From Podarcis pityusensis (taxonomy: Eukaryota): a DNA stretch of 64,000 bases. The position numbers and the translations under genes were made by a program. Positions 6,360-42,248 of the stretch are shown piece by piece. Numbering within the stretch: the first letter of the stretch is position 1; each line of letters starts with the position of its first letter. Under the pieces are notes generated by a model. The model saw nothing but the letters and a program-made list of their open reading frames with translations. It searched no databases and was not told the origin of the DNA. The stretch lies in NCBI GenBank assembly GCA_964106645.2, contig OZ067043.1. The stretch is one strand, 5' to 3'.

Positions 6360-9039
6360 GTTGTTAAGATTATTGTTTGCATATCTTATTGGACATTTGG
6401 CTATAAGATTATCTTGGCACAGTCTTTTTTAGCCACATGAGTGCAAAAGTATATTTTATTTATGAAGTACGTTGCCACCATATTTTGTAGTTATCAAGTC
6501 AAGGAATATATACTCTCTAGGTGTTCCTTTTATTAAATCACTACAAATATGAACAGTCTGCAAGGGATGCATCCCTAAACATTTGTGCATGGGATCAGGT
6601 CTCCCAAAACATCATCAGAGCTCCAGGTGCATGTACACAGACATTTAAGGTTTTATTTGCTCTTATGTTATTTGTTTGCTGCAGGGACTACCTGTATTCC
6701 TGCACAAATAAACACAGTTACATTTATGACTCTCTCATCTCCATTAGATTAGTGGAAGAGAATCACGGAGGGGGAGAGGTAGAATTCAGAAGAGCTGTGA
6801 AGTTGAGTTTTGGCATGCGGTATGAGCAGAGCAGCTACTTGTAGTCTACAGTGATCCTATAACAACTTTTCTTTGGCAGCAGGTCCAAATGTCTAAATTC
6901 CCTCTTCTTTCTGGCTGCTCTCTGTATTGACAGCCATTTCCATCCTTCATCTCTTTAGAATTTTTTTCAAAAGCTCTTTATCTGGTTGCACACACATTGC
7001 AGTGCTTGAATTGATCTTCAGAGCTGCTTTCCCTGTCATCTATAAAATGAGATTGGCTTGCTGAGGCTCAGCAGCTCAGCTGTGCTGCATGGACTATTAC
7101 CAGTAACCCACGTGGTCTAATTGCATACGCTCAGGTACAATGGTGATAGAGTGCCATACAACAACTCGCTCCTTTTCATGCATAGTTCTCAATGTATTTT
7201 CAAAGAGTGGTGGCTAATATAGTCCCCGTTATACACATTAGGGCATAACTACCAGGCTAATAAAGCTGAAAGAGGAACAGCAAAGATGCAAAGATGGTCT
7301 TTTCTGTCCAATCCAATGGTAGCAAGTGGTGGCAGCAGGAGGTGGGGTGCAGCCAAAGGACTGTTTTCATGACAATGGCACCACTTCCCTTTACAAGGCT
7401 GGGTCTGTGACATGGTGACAGCAAGCTTGTGGCCACACAATTAGCCCATAAAACCAACACTGGCTAATCTGATGGTTCTGCCACTGCAACCATGAGGCCC
7501 CAACCCCACCACCACCCTGCTCCTCCACTGTCCAGCTGGTGTTAGAAGGCTGGATCTGAGCAGGGGTGCCAAGTTGAATAAAATATTGGGGGCACAGGTA
7601 AGCACTGCCCCACATAATTGATCACACGATGCAGCAATGCCCATCAACTATTGGGGGGGGGCGCAGTGGGAATTATTTTTGGAATACAGAAATCAATCAG
7701 CAAACAGTTTGGGAAAGCCAATGAGGGGACATTGCCATTAGCAAAACTGCACCATGGGTCACAGAAAAAGTGACATTTGTAGAATAGGCATTTATATCTG
7801 TATCCTGGCCACTTCACTATTGCTCATGTAAACAATGACAAACCCAATGGTTATCCATGAGCCTGCTTAGTATTTGGGGCTTGCAGGCCTATTCCTTTAT
7901 ATCATCATCATCATCCCCTGCTCACACACACTCTAACCCAAGAGAAGCTAAAATAAGCAAAAGCCTTGTAAAGCAAAAAGAAAAGGAAGGCAATTAACCC
8001 GGAATCCAATTAGTCAGCAGAACTGAAGTCATTAGATAAGAAGCAGGATCTAGAAAGTTGCTAATATACACCCAGGTTGCTGGGTGGCCCAGTGTCTTGA
8101 TTGGCTCCTTATGTAAAATAGAGAGACCAGGGCCACAGAGATTAATTAGTGTCACCTTGCAGAGAACCCTCTGGCCTGGCTTGCTCCCAACCCTCATGCA
8201 CACAACTGCCACGCTTACCTCTTCCAATGGAATATCGTTCCACCCCAGTCATTAGTGTCTTCCAGTGGGAGCAAAGAGCAGGTGCATGCCCAGGGACAGC
8301 GAAAGGGGCATTTCCCTCTGTTCTTCAAGTAGGGCACGTGACCCTTGTTGCAAAGTTCTGCATCGCTGCTCTCTCTGTCAGCAGTGTGTTGTACAAGGCT
8401 GAGACATCATGCACTTGTCTAACACAATTTGCTCATGACAGGGAACAGGCAACACTCCATCTACTAGACACTCAAAGACTGACAGCCGCTGAGGGAGGAT
8501 GGGAGGGAGAGCGAAAAAGGCCTTGCTGCTCAGAAATCAGGCTTGATATTGATATCATCCTTTTGGCTTTCTGAATCACTGAGTACTATGTGGTTCTGAT
8601 AATCAGATTTACCAGGAGACGTTCTCTGTCTAAATGCCCGGCAAATCCCTCCTAATCTATTTCTTACACTTTTATCCACAGGGATGGCTTGTGTGTGTAG
8701 CCAACAGTAGCCATATTGCTTAGAACAATATTTAGTTTCACTTACCTTTTTTAAAAAGAAGTGTTCCTATTAACAGAAACTGCAGTTATCATAAATATAT
8801 GTGGTGATATCCTCACGCTATGAGAAACCCAATTATAGTGAGCAAATGTACTGAGTTTAATCCAAAAAAGTCAATGCATGAGTGGAACAGGACTTTCCCT
8901 CCCATGCGCCCACTAAATCTGCTCTGACAGCAGATTTGGGGGTGGGGGTAACAGGGATGCATGGTGGGAGGAGAGGTAAGTGAAATTCCAAGGTGCAGGC
9001 AGAAGAATTTGCCACTTGAGCTAAGTACACCTGGACAAA

Positions 9040-9413
9040 CAGAAGCTGGGACAGAGCAACAGGAGCTCATCCCGTCATGTGGATTTGAACCACTGACCTT
9101 CTGATCAGCAAGCTCAAGAGGCTCAGTGGTTTAGACCACCCACTCCAACCTAGCAGTTTGAAAGCACACCAGTGCAAGTAGATAAATAGGTACCACTGCG
9201 ATGGGAAGGTAAACAGTGTTTCCATGCGCTCTGGCTTCCGTCACAGTGTTCCATTGCACCAGAAGCGGTTTAGTCATGCTGATTACATGACCCGGAAAGT
9301 TTTCTGTGGACAAGCACCGGCTCCCTCAGCCTGAAAGCGATATGAGCGCTGCAACCCCATAGTCACCTTTGACTGGACTTAACTGTCCAGGGGTCCTTTA
9401 CTTTTAACTTTTT
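9040..9413 (+). mobile_element. Sauria SINE with inverted 5' segment
   Basis: 9040-9139 is the antisense tRNA-related head; 9145-9413 is sense body plus tail; 13-bp direct repeat ACCTGGACAAACA at 9029-9041 and 9414-9426. Confidence 0.92.
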
Positions 9414-11397
9414 ACCTGGACAAACACTTTAAGGCCTTTTTTATGGGATTAGCTTTGTACCTAGCAGCAGCACCAGATCTTCCTCCTCAAAATGTCCTTC
9501 CCGTTTTGTAAAAATCCTGTATTCCATTGATGGAAGTGTACAATTGGGAATGCAAAGCACCCCAAAGCTGACATTCACGACTGCAGAGCTTTTGGTTTAA
9601 GTTTTAAATGGGGTTTCCTAGAAAAAGCAAAATTGTAAGAATAGATCTTCACACATTTCACTAAATAAGGACCTGGGATTGAGTACTTCTGTATAAAAAT
9701 ACCAAGTTTGTAATGATAATGTATATGTAAGTAAGAGTAAGAGCAATATGAGTGAAATAAGAATTCATCATGTAAAGCCTTAAGTACACTATAACAAAAC
9801 TTAATAAACAACTCCAAAGAAAATGTCAGACCCATCTTTTTGTCACTGTGCACATTATGTTTCCACCCCTCCTCTAAATGAATGTTTATTACACCACAAT
9901 CTCACTGAAAACAGATATGCTGTGTTTTTTTCGAAGTAACTGCAAACAAATGGTGGAAACCACTACAATCAACTATAGTGCACTCAGATGGTGCTTCTGA
10001 AGAATAGATCTGTCACATTTGTCACATCTGCATCTGTCACACACATTTGAAAAGTGCTGCACGATCACAGCTATCACAGATTTTGCATATCAGCATCCAC
10101 ATAGGGCAGAGATGGGCACCTTCAGCCTGTGGGTCTCATTAACCCTGCCTGGCCTCCATTTGACCTGCAAGGCCATCCTGGCCAACCCATGCCTACATTT
10201 GATGTCATATATGGCACAGGTAAAGATATGGCTCAGCTTAAAGACCGTTTGCAGGCACTGCTGATGGGTGGTACCTGCACAAAGCACTGGGCACTGGACT
10301 TCTCAAACCCTGTTGGTCAGAGTTTTTGAAGTGCTCTGCACAGGGTTTAGCAATCTCAATCTTTTGTCTGATTGTAGCATTTTGCAGAGGGCTATGCATC
10401 AGGCTTTGCAAAATCCTGCTATCAGTTGATGTACAGGACTTTGTAGACCTTGCCTTTGACCACACAGTTTGATTTCGAAATTGTGTGAGCAAAAATTGGT
10501 CACCTAACATCATCTGAGTATCAGCTCAGTGACAGGTGACCCCACCCACTTTAAAACTTTACCTATGCAGTTGGGAAGATGGATCCAGTTCCCACCCTGG
10601 CATATAGGCACCAATTTACAAAAAAAAGTGTCTCTGTGCAAATGTGCTTTGGTCACAAGCTCAATGGGCAAACATGGGCACTCCCAAAGTGATGGCAAGA
10701 GAATCTTTCTATTATGTGTGACCCAAGTTAAAGGCACTGCGATGATAATGATGATAATAATTATAAGATTTGTGAGTCACCTACACAAAGCCTCTCAGCA
10801 ACTTACAACATAATAATTAGAAATGCAATTTAAATGTAACACATTAAGTGTGAGACCATGTGAGACATTCTGCACCCTCAATGCAGTTTACAGGATTTTC
10901 TCAAAAAATATACATTAACAATTTACCCTTGATATGTCATTATTTACCCAGGAAGGAAACTTTTGAGATCTAGCTTTGATCTGGAGGAGGAATCCTTCAA
11001 AGGAATGGTAATTGATTCAGCAATTAGCACTGCGTTAACATGGAGCCTGCAAGCAGCAGGTCGGAGGGGAAGCTAGGAAAAGACCTTTAAAAGACAGCAA
11101 GTGTCCTCTGAATTAATCAGAATAGCCTAATTCTAAGACTGAGAAGGATAAAACAATGTTTGCAGGCACGTGCATAGTGTAGGCACAGTGAAGTAAATAT
11201 GCAGTCATCACAGGAGAATTGTGTACTTCTTACACAGGAGTGTAGGAATTTTGACATATCTGAAGTGATGCCAAGAAACAGCATGGTCCAAGGGACCATA
11301 AGACAATGTCTTTACTGGGAACAAGCCCAAGTTCACACTTTAGCATGCAAGCTTTGAGTTGCATAGAACAGTTCCTCCTGCTGGGGTTTTAAAAATA

Positions 11398-14727: not shown

Positions 14728-16153
14728 CTAACAGTTCTGCTCAGGTGCTACTGACAGGCAATGCTGAGGGCCCTGCAGGATAAATATACATGATGGGAGG
14801 GCTAAAAAAATAGCCACTCACCCAAGATCACCAAGTGAGTATAATTTGATCAAGGCAGATCCCAGTTTATAGTCCAACCTGTTAGCCACTATGCTGCGCC
14901 ACCTCTCTCACACCACAAAGAAAAGAAAGAAAATCAGCGAAATGGAATGCACATAGTGTAAAATAGACTTCCTCAGCCTGGTACCCTCCAGGCCAGTGAT
15001 GGCTAGAGCTGATGGTGTTGTAGTCAAAAATATCTGGAGGGCACCAGGGAAACAGATTGTTTAAACTGTTTGAACACTGCAGACTAAGTCTCTTAACCAA
15101 ATACTGTGCCTCAGTTCTACAGCCATCATATGGGGACAATGGTTGTGTTCTGTAAAAGGTTGTGCAATGTTCATACCTTCTGCAGATTGAAGTTACTGTA
15201 TGTACCTGAAGATGCCAAAGCCACCTTCTCTAAATGTTCCTTTCTCTAAATGTTCCTAAAATACTTTTTTAAAACTGCAAACCCCTACTGCCACCTCATA
15301 CAGACAGATGCAAGAAATTACCATTACCAAAACAGTGTAAGAATAAATGAATATTTTAACATTGATTGCTAACTGGTAAATTAACAGAGAAAGCCTTGAG
15401 GCAGAGCATGCAGAAATTCACTGCTACTTTTAATATTACTATGAAATTGAAATTGTTTTCGGAGGGGTTCCTATTGCTTCTTTTCAATGTTGTTCTTTTC
15501 TAGTCTTGCCTGTCTAGATTTCAATATAAAAATTTCAGGTGTGTTTTCTTGGAGAATTATAAGATCTTGAACCTGGTAAAGAGTAGCAACTGAGGATGTC
15601 CAGTTAGTTTCTCACGTTCTCCCCGCCTCCTAAAAAAACAAGAACACCACTCTTCCTCTAAAGCATAGCACAATGCACCGAATATGCATGGAGTCAGAGG
15701 TAGGTAACAATCCCCCCTTCTCTCTTCGTTGCTTCCAGGGGAGAGACAGATTAGTTGCTCTTATCAGATGTCTGAACCGATCACTTGCACAGTTGCTTTT
15801 GAAATTAGAACTAAAGTCAGTATGTCAGTATGAGCTGCAAGTTTCCCTTCCTATTTTCAGGCTTCGTGTGAATTGCACAAGTTTTCAAAGGAGACCAGGG
15901 GACTTCCCCAGCTAACGACAAAGGAGGAATCAGTTTTAAATGGATTATACACTAAATTTAGTGGTCCTGACCCAATAAAGTTTGCCCACATTAGACCTCC
16001 TCTTGCATCAAGCACCTGCTTATGTCCAAGCTGCTCGTGCATAGTTGTTGTTGTTGTTGTTTAAAAAAAACAACACAAGGTAATTATACACAAGGTTAAA
16101 CACAAAAATATGTCTATTGTACATAGAGTCAATTCACAAGTGGTACTATATTT

Positions 16154-16473
16154 CTCTGGGGTTGCGGTGCTCATCTCGCTTTATTGGCCAAGGGAGCCGG
16201 CATACAGCTTCTGGGTCATGTGGCCAGCATGACTAAGCCGCTTCTGGCGAATGAGAGCAGCACACGGAAACACCGTTTACCTTCTCGCGAGAGCGGTACC
16301 TATTTATCTACTTGCACTTTTTTCGGCATGCTTTCGAACTGCTAGGTTGGCAGGAGCAGGGACCGAGCAATGGGAGCTCACCAGGTTGCGGGGATTCAAA
16401 CCACCGACCTTCTGACCGGCAAGTCCTAGGCTCTGTGGTTTAACCCACAGCGCTACTCACATCCCTTTACCTT
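16154..16473 (-). mobile_element. Sauria SINE, body antisense but tail in sense orientation
   Basis: 16154-16465 matches the minus-strand copy at 41911-42248; CCCTTTACCTTTA tail sits at the head end; 12-bp TSD TACTATATTTCT at 16144-16155 and 16474-16485. Confidence 0.92.
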
Positions 16474-17368
16474 TACTATATTTCTACAGCTTAACTTTGT
16501 AAGTTATACATTTTATGCATTGTTGTGAATATCTCTTTACGTGCTGGTTAGTTTAGGAAACCTAGACTGTATATACATGTAGTGCATTTCTTAATATTAT
16601 GTGTATAATACTGGGTGCTATAGTGTATATAATGTGTAAGAATTGCTTTGAGTGAATTTTTTATGAATCTCATGGGGGGGGGGATGAAATGCAACTGATC
16701 AAAGTCAAGGAGCAAGATGGGAATTAGAAAAAAAAAAGCTGTGCAGAGAAACTCAACAGAATATTTATTTAAATATTTATAGATTGCAATTTTCCTAAAA
16801 ATACAAGAAGTTGGTATACAATGTACAATCCCCCCCCCCCCGAAAATTCCATCCCTATCCCCAGCATTGTCCTTTTAGGGCAGCAATCCTACATCCACTA
16901 AGGGTTTGTCCACACTTCTGCTTGCCCCCCCACGCCCCCCCCATGGGAAACCTACTCCTTACCACTGAATTGGAGCAAATGTCAATCAGATTGACATTTC
17001 TGCAGACTGACGTTTGCTCTGATTCAGCAGTAAAGAGCAAGTTTTCCCAGGAAAAGTGGTAGGGCAAACAGAAAACCGCTCTGACCCATGCCTAGAATGC
17101 ATGGAATAAAAGAAACCACTGAGATCCGTGCTTTCCAGGCATGGGAGAAGTCAAGTGTGGATGGGCACTTACTCCTGAGTAAATCTCCTTCAGATGAACA
17201 GACTCTTATTCTAAGTGCACATTAAAAAGAGGGGGCTTAATGGCTCACACACGGATTAGATAAGATCCTTTAGCCAAGTTTACCATGGTCTTCTCTGCAC
17301 ATCCCACAGGTCTTGCCTTGGAACTTCAGAGCTCCAATCTGGGAAGTTGCTCTCCTTAAAATTGTTTT

Positions 17369-31365: not shown

Positions 31366-32911
31366 TGTGTGTGTGTGTGTGTATATACACATCTTGTAGA
31401 GAATCTACTCTAAGAATCAACTCTTTGATAATGTTCTGTCACACCCTTAAAAGAATGCATAATAGATGGGTATCTTTTACATGTGTGGACTACATCTGCT
31501 GCACAATATGAGAGTATCAGTCTCACATTCAGATTCCTAGGAGACCTGCATGGTTGGCACATGGTGCTGCATGGTATGAGGGTTTGTCATTTGATTTTTC
31601 ATCCCCCCCAGTGTATTCCATCGTGAAACAAAAATGTTCCACTAGTGTGCTAGCCACCAGTATACAACTATTCTCTGAGTTTACACTTTTGTAGAAAATA
31701 GATAGATTTTTTTCAGATCCAAATCTACAACGATGGCATATGCTGATTTCTGTTGCTAGGACAGGGTGATGATTACTGGAACATGTGGTGAATTGAATGT
31801 ACGATTGAAAAAATGCAAAACTGAGAGAATTGAAGTTGTCATTCTTCCACCCCTAGTATAGACCCATTCCTCTTCCTGTTCAAAAGTCAGATGATTTCAA
31901 GGATTCTGAATGCATGATTGGGACAGCTGAGGTGAAAACGCTTCTTGACTGCAGTCGGGGCTCGATGGAGCCTGAGAAATTCATATTTGAAAGAAGAAGT
32001 GGTGGTATTTGAAGAAGTCAGCCAGGTGTCTGGCTGAGGAGGAGGTGAAGACAACTGAGAAGAGTGATGAGATGTGACAGAGGAAAGAAAGAGGCAGAAT
32101 TGGAAGATGCAAACAGATGAGCTGACAGCAGTAAACAGGTTGAGACTGAAATTGCCCTTAAAAGGGGGAAGTCAAAGGATGATTTGATTAAGATGAGTAA
32201 ATGACAAAAAGGAAAATGAAATTGGGAAGAAAAGCCCATCAGCATCCCACACAGCAAAAAGAAGAGCAGATCATTGTTGTTAATGAGGGCTCATGCCCAT
32301 CATTCTTATCACCAGCTTCTGTCTGGAGCATCTAGCCCCTGAGACATGGAAGAATGTATGCCTATATGCAGTTCAGATCATATTTCTGTCTAGCATTGTC
32401 CTTCAGATACATTTCTCTCTCTCTCTCTCATTATGCTGGAATTGCAGGCTCAGCTTTTAAACTTCTTTTTCTTAATAAGCAATTTGTACAATCACACAAA
32501 TTGTATGTTCTCTGATGCATTAACTTTGCCAAAACATGGTTGAGAAGAGATGGAGGGCATGAAATAGCTTGGACGCTGCTATTCTAAAGTAGATAGGCTT
32601 AGCTGCTGATCAAAGAGATTAGAAAATGAAATGGAAATTCAGTAGGTTAATATACCCTATGACTTATGACTATTCGGGAATATAAAGGTCTCATCAGCAG
32701 TATTTGAATTACGTAATATTCAGCTGTGAGTCCTGCAAGCTTCTGTATGTGAACTGGGAGGGGTCACCATCTTGTCCTATGCCTCAGGCAGCAAAATGTC
32801 TTGGGGTGGCCAAAGCTCTTAAAGTGTCCAATTAAATGTGTGGGTGAGTAGAACAATGCCATATACGGTACCTTGTAAGACTCAAAGTAGAAACAAAAAA
32901 AATAAGGGAAG

Positions 32912-35082
32912 ACAGTCAAAGGCTTTTACATAGTCAATGAAGCAGAAGTAGATGTCTTTCTGGAACTCTCTAGCTTTCTCCATAATCCAGCGCATGTTTG
33001 CAATTTGGTCTCTGGTTCCCCTGCCCCTTCGAAATCCAGCTTGCACTTCTGGGAGTTCTCGGTCCACATACTGCTTAAGCCTGCCTTGTAGAATTTTAAG
33101 CATAACCTTGCTAGCGTGTGAAATGAGTGCAATTGTGCGGTAATTGGAGCATTCTTTGGCACTGCCCTTCTTTGGGATTGGGATTCTCCAATCCTCTGGC
33201 CACTGCTGAGTTTTCCAAATTTGCTGGCATATTGAGTGTAGCACTTTGACAGCATCATCGTTTAAAATTTTAAATAGTTCAGCTGGAATATCATCACTTC
33301 CACTGGCCTTGTTATTAGCAGTGCTTTCTAAGGCCCATTTGACTTCACTCTCCAGGATGTCTGGCTCAAGGTCAGCAACCACACTACCTGGAGTGTACGA
33401 GACATCCATTTCTTTCTGGTATAATTCCTCTGTGTATTCTTGCCACCTCTTCTTAATGTCTTCTGCTTCTGTTAGGTGTATTCTTGCCACCTCTTCTTAA
33501 TGTCTTCTGCTTCTGTTAGGTCCTTTCCACTTTTGTCTTTTATTATGGTAATCTTTGTACGAAATGTTCCTTTCATATCTCCAATTTTCTTGAACAGATC
33601 TCTGGTTTTTCCCATTCTATTGTTTTCCTCTATTTCTTTGCATTGCTCGTTTAAGAAGGCCTTCTTGTCTCTCCTTGCTATTTTTTGAAAATCTGCATTC
33701 AGTTTCCTGTATCTTTTACTATCTCCCTCGCATTTTGCTTGCCTTCTCTCCCCCGCTATTTGTAAGGCCTCGTTGGACAGCCACTTTGCTTTCTTGCATT
33801 TCCTTTTCATTGGGATGGTTTTCGTTGCTGCCTCCTGTATAATGTTACGAGCCTCCATCCATAGTTCTTCAGGCACTCTGTCCACCAAATCTAAATCCTT
33901 AAACCTGTTCCTCACTTCCACTGTGTATTCATAAGGGATTTGACTTAGATTGTATCTTACCGGCCCAGTGGTTTTTCCTACTTTCTTCAGTTTAAGCTTT
34001 AATTTTGCTATAAGAAGCTGATGATCTGAGCCACAGTCAGCTCCAGGTCTTGTTTTTGCTGACTGTATAGAGCTTCTCCATCTTTGGCTGCAGAGAATAT
34101 AATCAATCTGATTTCGATGCTGCCCATCTGGTGATGTCCATGTGTAAAGTCGTCTCTTGTGTTGTTGGAAAAGAGTGTTTGTGATGACCAGCTTGTTCTC
34201 TTGGCAGAACTCTATTAGCCTTTTGCCCTGCTTCGTTTTGAACTCCAAGGCCAAACTTGCCAGTTGTTCCTTTTATCTCTTGACTCCCTACTTTAGCATT
34301 CCAATCCCCTATAATGAGAAGAACATCCTTCTTTGGTGTCATTTCTATAAGGTGTTGTAAGTCTTCATAGAATTGGTCAATTTCAGTTTCTTGGATTACT
34401 GTGATGTTAAAAGGTCTGCCTTGGATTCGTATCGAGATCATTCTATCATTTTTGAGATTGCATCCCAGTACAGCTTTCACCACTCTTTTGTTGACTATGA
34501 GGGCCACTCCATTTCTTTTATGGGATTCTTGCCCACAGTAGTAGATATGATGGTCATCTGAACTGAATTCGCCCATTCCCGTCCATTTTAGTTCACTGAT
34601 GCCAGGATGTCAATATTTATTCTTGACATCTCATTTTTGACCACATCCAACTTACCAAGGTTCATGGTTCTTACATTCCAGGTTCCTATGCAATATTTTT
34701 CTTTACAGCATTGGACTTTCCTGTCGCTTCCAGGCATATCCGCAACTGAGCGTCCTTTTGGCTTTGGCCCAGCCGCTTCATCAGCTCTGGATCTACTTGT
34801 ACTTGTCCTCCGCTCTTCCTCAATAGCATGTTGGACACCTTCCGACCTGAGGGGCTCATCTTCCAGCGTCATAACTTTTATATGCCTGTTGCCTTTGTCC
34901 ATGGAGTTTTCTTGGCAGGGATACTGGAGTGGCTTGCCAGTTCCTGCTCCAGGTGGATCACGTTTGGTCAAAACTCTCCACTATGACCTGTCCATCTTGG
35001 GTGGCCCTGCACGGCATAGCTCATAGCTTCTCTGAGTTATTCAAGCCCCTTCGCCACGGCAAGGCAGTGATCCATGAAGGGG
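32912..35082 (-). mobile_element. BovB (RTE) LINE: 5' UTR, endonuclease and N-terminal RT; frameshifted; 3' part missing
   Basis: ORFs give IGTWNVRTMN, IIGDWNAKVG, NQIDYIL, GSDHQLL (APE endonuclease) and NYRTIALISHASK, QAGFRRGRGTRDQI, CFIDYVKAFDC (RT); three frameshifts. Confidence 0.97.
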
Positions 35083-41910: not shown

Positions 41911-42248
41911 AAAGAGGTAAAGGGACCCCTGATTGTTAGGTCCAGAAGCGGATGACTCTGGGGTTGCAGCGCTCATCTCGCTTTATTGGCCGAGGGAGCC
42001 GGCGTACAGCTTCTGGGTCATGTGGCCAGCATGACTAAGCTGCTTCTGGCGAACCAGAGCAGCACATGGAAACGCCGTTTACCTTCCCGCTGGAGCGGTA
42101 CCTATTTATCTACTTGCACTTTGACATGCTTTCGAATTGCTAGGTTGGCAGGAGCTGGGACCGAGCAATGGGAGCTCACCCCGTCACAGGGATTCAAACT
42201 GCCAACCTTCTGATCGGCAAGCCCTAGGCACAGTGGTTTAGACCACAG
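41911..42248 (-). mobile_element. Sauria SINE, ordinary colinear copy
   Basis: ggtaaagggacccctg tail, gtacctatttatctacttgcac core, tRNA-related head. Confidence 0.93.

Follow-up and report, generated by a model that had tools for sequence, protein, structure and literature searches.

A rare 5'-inverted SINE copy in Podarcis pityusensis and its probable origin by twin priming

A SINE copy at 16144..16485 of a 64,000-nt stretch of Podarcis pityusensis DNA (assembly GCA_964106645.2, contig OZ067043.1; this whole stretch is referred to as the window) carries its body in antisense and only its tail in sense. The evidence supports well that the structure is real and that this SINE copy is a rare 5'-inverted one, at the extreme of a small class found in the genome. 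We consider it probable that the structure arose as one insertion of a Sauria-type SINE, inverted at its 5' end through twin priming by the reverse transcriptase of BovB (RTE clade).

Positions within the element (c) are those of a 352-nt consensus, for which we took the 29 best of the other copies in the genome. Alignment to this consensus confirmed what a preliminary description of the locus had proposed, namely a 12-bp target-site duplication around an antisense body that runs to the 5' end of the SINE and then joins a sense tail (Table 1). The duplicated 12-mer is TACTATATTTCT in both copies, and this one duplication encloses both the antisense body and the sense tail, in agreement with the empty site described below. 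The antisense part starts internally, at c308, and abuts the duplication with a 2-nt overlap. The stretch missing relative to a colinear copy, previously put at about 30 nt, is 29 nt long (c309-337, equivalent to ~41927-41955 in the colinear copy). The TCCC microhomology reported at the inversion junction is also present, as 4 nt in the sequence read today and as 5 nt (GTCCC) by the consensus; the G is a decayed CpG in this copy, and CpG transitions make up 13 of its 27 differences from the consensus. At the 3' junction, TAC is common to the tail repeat and the right duplication. A-box-like and B-box-like motifs lie in the head of the antisense body (at c11 and c65 by a simple pattern). Because the head with the promoter no longer has hairpin and tail on its own strand, the copy is likely inactive.

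Table 1. Parts of the inverted SINE insertion and their positions in the window
Feature	Position	Strand	Remarks
Left target-site duplication copy	16144..16155	+	12 bp; starts with TA; AATT 9-12 nt upstream
CT common to left duplication and SINE c307-308	16154..16155	+	putative priming point
SINE body, c308 to c1, antisense to tail	16154..16465	-	91% to young-subfamily consensus
Inversion junction	16461..16465	+	antisense head and sense c338-342 both GTCCC in consensus; ATCCC here
Sense tail, c339-352, (ACCTTT)n type	16462..16476	+	final three letters common to right duplication
Right target-site duplication copy	16474..16485	+	12 bp

The window holds four SINE copies, of which those at 9040 and 16144 are inverted and those at 41915 and 53382 are both colinear and antisense. 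The 9040 copy, which the preliminary description took to be an independent event, indeed belongs to an older subfamily (74-81% to the young-subfamily consensus) and has another breakpoint (c115). It occupies 9027-9424, with c115-18 in antisense followed by sense sequence from ~c114, a duplication ACCTGGACAAACA and a 2-nt overlap. In a Pfam search of 55 of the 67 long open frames, which short exons would escape, a broken LINE at 32.9-34.6 kb was the sole match. This LINE lies on the minus strand (32885-34609), with endonuclease and reverse-transcriptase remnants across three frames.

To place the insertion in related genomes, public contigs of seven related organisms (A to G) were compared across the locus. 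E, F and G have an empty site (contigs X13, X19 and X20), in which 16143 is joined to 16474; the contigs skip 330 letters, 12 letters can be placed on either side, and nothing lies in between. Thus the duplication is genuine, and the insertion comprises all 330 nt, the tail among them. A tail already present in the target before insertion, which had been named as grounds for abandoning the inversion, is rejected: E, F and G have a single 12-mer and no tail sequence. A, B and C, which are closer than E, F and G, have the same inverted form as the window. Contig X1 of organism A spans 16430-16827 and reads through the inversion junction. For B and C, the contigs extend from the left flank over the adjoining 27 letters of the antisense body, slightly short of the 31 letters required by the bridging rule. 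Given both the empty-site contigs and the inverted-form contigs, the insertion is neither chance nor an assembly error. Among the matches listed for organisms A-G, D (X8) being without cover beside the site, there was no colinear, nested or intermediate allele. The insertion is a clean presence/absence marker for A, B and C versus E, F and G, and has no evident function.

The cut site agrees with insertion in the direction of the tail. Of 65 colinear copies examined, a duplication could be called in 47, and 43 young ones with such a call served to build a site matrix. TA falls within the first four duplication letters in 36 of the 43, and T is the commonest letter at -12 to -10. In the tail orientation the 16144 site scores 5.2 bits, a value attained by 0.4% of random window sites (the training copies have a median of 6.3), whereas the opposite strand scores -10.1 bits at the duplication start and at best 1.7 with a shift of up to 3 nt. 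Thus the first nick was most likely primed on the tail. A Tn-TA insertion signature, given in the accessible part of PMC13295347, agrees with the sites of the colinear copies and with the 16144 site. Separately, 32 of the 47 colinear copies (L066-L260) carry 1-7 variable extra letters between duplication and head.

The copy has the (ACCTTT)n tail by which Sauria SINEs are defined in the available sections of PMC6007223 and PMC13295347. A 16-nt hairpin (c305-320) has 15 of 16 letters common to the SINE and the 3' end of the genome's (CAA)n-tailed LINE; L100 and L255 also hold a motif present in the Bov-B sequences of PMC13295347. In the supplement of that paper, Bov-B copies are accompanied by a near-identical sequence that bears no label. 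Rfam gave no tRNA match for the SINE, with one chance match (E 4.3). From tail, hairpin and signature, we infer the family name Sauria SINE. Some Bov-B copies in the same supplement have a SINE head fused at the 5' end within one duplication.

With two of four copies inverted, the preliminary description suggested that such inversions may be frequent; the counts run against this. We sampled 160 stretches of 10 kb (1.6 Mb; 14 hand-chosen regions, some near SINE-dense places), which contained 192 copy clusters, 10 of them edge clusters that were dropped. Duplication-flanked inversions were found in 0 of the 182 remaining clusters (upper 95% bound 1.6%), a count that inverted pieces shorter than ~25 nt would escape. 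A genome-wide pattern, an antisense head followed by a sense pre-tail within 300 nt, gave 58 matches, for which the reference was the 23,959 colinear copies that contain both motifs. We examined 43 of the 58; one further match repeats the shown sequence of L267, and 14 were left out, their shown letters passing from a full head into unrelated spacer. Fourteen of the 43 were duplication-flanked inversions and five were tail-less inversions in which no duplication was found, the remainder being 8 nested pairs, 13 pairs of separately tailed copies and 3 small internal flips. The inversion rate is 0.058% (14/23,959; 95% interval 0.03-0.10%); counting the unclear cases and the repeated sequence as well raises it to 0.083% (20/23,959). 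Because these figures cover only young copies whose inverted part includes c16-31, inversions are somewhat more frequent overall. From a second pattern, which matched 18 rows at 13 loci, came L165, L168 and L176 as well as a 10-nt inversion, L171. The best 40 colinear-like matches of a DNA similarity search were uninformative on frequency. Frequent inversions are thus rejected (0/182 clusters in 1.6 Mb; 14-20 per 23,959 colinear copies): the inversion pathway is real in this genome but rare, at ~0.06-0.08% of colinear copies. At rates of 0.06-0.5%, two inverted copies of four are expected in ~0.05-3.5 of 23,677 genome windows, and their occurrence in one window is therefore best read as a picked rarity.

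The genome-wide scan proposed earlier, for an antisense head followed immediately by (ACCTTT)n and a duplication, does recover the 16144 locus, but the junction that it targets is not diagnostic. A scan for an antisense head directly joined to a sense tail gave 43 matches, all of which were checked; the pattern demands an exact match to the head, and junctions into which letters were inserted escape it. The copy keeps its own tail in 41 of the 43, including L159, which is split by a later insertion, and many of these junctions are nested in another copy's tail. A head-to-tail junction alone thus proves nothing. The two remaining junctions are L154, a nested pair with a deletion, and the 16144 locus, the sole tail-only form (1/43). 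With no second copy among these exact-head junction matches, a spreading subfamily with a flipped build is rejected. More generally, young copies often lie in antisense within the tail or pre-tail of older copies (L034-L038, L041, L042, L046, L048, L049, L125, L183, L271, L279, L289), and the tail looks like a preferred target.

There are 18 other duplication-flanked inversions of the same build: 13-14 from the genome-wide pattern, L165, L168, L176 and the window's 9040 copy. Across 19 inversions, the 16144 copy included, the overlap at the left junction averages 2.0 nt versus 0.74 by chance (p ~1e-5), with overlaps hand-curated, the lower value taken in doubtful cases, and with search patterns that favour inversions reaching the head. 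The gap from priming point to sense restart is +29 at the 16144 copy and -63 to +36 in the other inversions. L292, with c262-1 flipped, is a near analogue of the 16144 copy. L291 (675-1070) consists of antisense c151-1, a head-to-tail join, 7 nt of target and a switch to sense c142, with a single 11-bp duplication and no outer copy. At L134, the second cDNA would have joined at the other GTCCC, c103-107. The overlapping parts of L176 (1460-1890), also a duplication-flanked inversion, carry different subfamily variants and possibly come from two RNAs. The minimal inverted piece is found at L171 (1500-1875, minus strand), where a full-length copy is preceded by ~10 nt of antisense c112-122 within one duplication.

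Twin priming could generate the 16144 copy as follows. An endonuclease would nick at TA, and the first cDNA would be primed on the RNA tail through 3-nt pairing. A second nick 12 nt away would provide a CT 3' end. This would pair with c307-308, where the hairpin common to the SINE and the BovB 3' end has its foot, and the second cDNA would extend to the RNA's first base, hence ending in GTCCC. This end would anneal to GGGAC of the first cDNA at c338-342, and repair would close the site. The first cDNA may have stalled at the 3' structured domain, or may have been longer and then trimmed; it need not have been only 14 nt, because such pairing, as L291 shows, can fall inside a longer first cDNA. 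The shared BovB hairpin falls in the lost part of the 16144 copy, with the putative priming point at its foot, and the lost stretch, c309-337, corresponds to two hairpins in an RNA fold prediction. Head-to-tail pairing within the RNA has a predicted probability of 0.03-0.06, and as a cause it is unsupported by the predicted fold. Several features limit how far the locus itself speaks for twin priming. The CT shared with the left duplication is present as previously noted, but a 2-nt overlap has a chance probability of 18% and is weak alone (p 0.18); a head-to-tail junction arises far more often through nested insertion than through inversion; and the 14-nt sense part is too short to tie both pieces to one RNA.

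A more specific form of the twin-priming reading, which we put forward tentatively, is that the BovB/RTE enzyme twin-primes a 350-nt SINE RNA at points that bracket its recognition hairpin, with the GGGAC/GTCCC ends as a built-in splint (also at L291, and at L134 with the other GTCCC). First-strand synthesis would then stall at the protein-bound 3' domain, and the second target end would invade just upstream. If so, inverted copies would map where the RTE ORF2p holds its template.

The same arrangement could in principle be reached by nesting and deletion: a sense copy, either full or short and 5'-truncated, would make the duplication, an antisense copy would enter its tail, and a hairpin deletion would remove the outer body and the inner tail. 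The right junction is identical to that of nested pairs, it is common for sense copies to hold an antisense copy at the 3' end (3/182 clusters, 8/43 pattern matches), and short 5'-truncated copies starting at c312-316 exist (L057, L112), as do nested pairs with deletions (L074, L154, L183, L273). Parts of the route therefore exist, since sequence was lost in two of the three nested antisense clusters of the sample (L074, L183) and the inner tail was lost in L154. However, this history demands three events between the E/F/G split and the A/B/C spread, with no intermediate among the matches listed for organisms A-G. Its deletion must also stop at the duplication edge, whereas L074, L154, L183 and L273 all keep the outer head, and a remnant of a second duplication is not seen at the locus. 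We regard it as the main competing account, but as unlikely.

It is highly improbable that a colinear copy was inverted after insertion, between GGGAC (c1-5) and GTCCC (c338-342), and that the left end of the inverted segment was subsequently deleted. The right breakpoint does lie inside a 5-nt inverted repeat, and some copies that are otherwise colinear contain small internal inversions (L282, L286, L288), but a second, exact deletion would be required, a clean flip starting GGGACCCC without its own tail is seen in 0 of the 43 junction matches, and there is no colinear allele among the matches listed for organisms A-G. Hardly credible is a tail-less minus-strand copy, primed only internally at c308, whose tail-like letters would be extra 5' sequence, for example read-through from a parent nested in a tail. 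There are parents with AAGGTAAA directly ahead of the head (22 strict matches), but the orientation of the cut-site signature is plus and not minus, the 3-nt pairing between tail and duplication is that of a normal 3' end, and the empty site is without a tail.

Copies rearranged in other ways were also encountered. In head-to-head pairs, two tailed copies are fused with loss of head sequence and share no duplication (L167, L172, L174, L178, L269, L281, L283, L285); these may have arisen when inverted neighbours lost the sequence between them, or when two RNAs were primed. Internally deleted copies (L123:901-945, L082:8389-8584, L184:3056-3291, L044) have intact duplications where checked, with joins of c27 to c335, c113 to c262 and c70 to c188.

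The papers compared below are cited for their available sections. Twin priming has been modelled for L1 (PMC2912911, PMC4245944), and the likeness to the 16144 copy is close in build: in 5'-inverted L1, the inverted 5' part abuts the left duplication, the 3' part is non-inverted, the duplication is 10-20 bp, overlaps occur at the 5' and inversion junctions, and there is a small loss or overlap between the parts. In contrast with L1, the template at 16144 is a 350-nt SINE RNA with an (ACCTTT)n tail, likely handled by an RTE-clade enzyme, and the non-inverted part is the tail only. L1 is inverted in 31% of cases (639/2068, PMC2912911), as against ~0.06-0.08% for the SINE class here. In what is accessible of PMC4245944, nearly all 5' inversions in human cells are those of human L1, with the exception of one Nimb-2 insert, and they are tied to 10-20 bp duplications; PMC13174262, as far as available, treats L1 only. 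Alu, also a short non-autonomous element, is likewise rarely inverted, with one 5'-inverted copy in 5554 (PMC2912911) and 0.02% of 5936 (PMC12016303). The inversion rate here provides a figure for comparison with Alu; the two are of the same order and do not differ significantly (Fisher p 0.33; denominators built differently). Alu differs in its use of L1 ORF2p and poly(A), whereas the SINE here carries a LINE-derived 3' hairpin. The inverted chimeras of snRNA and L1 (PMC4476161), a case of twin priming on two RNAs, resemble the 16144 copy in that a 3'-truncated short RNA lies in antisense, internally primed on the second strand. They differ in that each part derives from a separate RNA and in involving L1 alone; for L2 and RTE, the sections at hand of the same paper have template-switch chimeras only.

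Also among the closest known systems is Sauria SINE (Squam1), mobilised by Bov-B; with this SINE the 16144 copy has in common the (ACCTTT)n tail, a T-first duplication with an upstream T stretch, and the 3' sequence of a (CAA)n-tailed LINE (PMC6007223, PMC13295347). The portions of PMC13295347 at hand describe duplications and the insertion signature of Sauria SINE but not inverted copies, and we found no report of inverted Sauria SINE or BovB copies in the open-access literature. The mechanism is one known from mammalian L1, here in a clade for which we found no such report. A set of BovB-type SINE inversions flanked by 10-14 bp duplications would bring the RTE clade, a reptile germ line and a 350-nt template within the range of twin priming. 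The single locus is of modest interest; the class would be a useful extension of twin priming, as known from L1, to RTE-mobilised SINEs.
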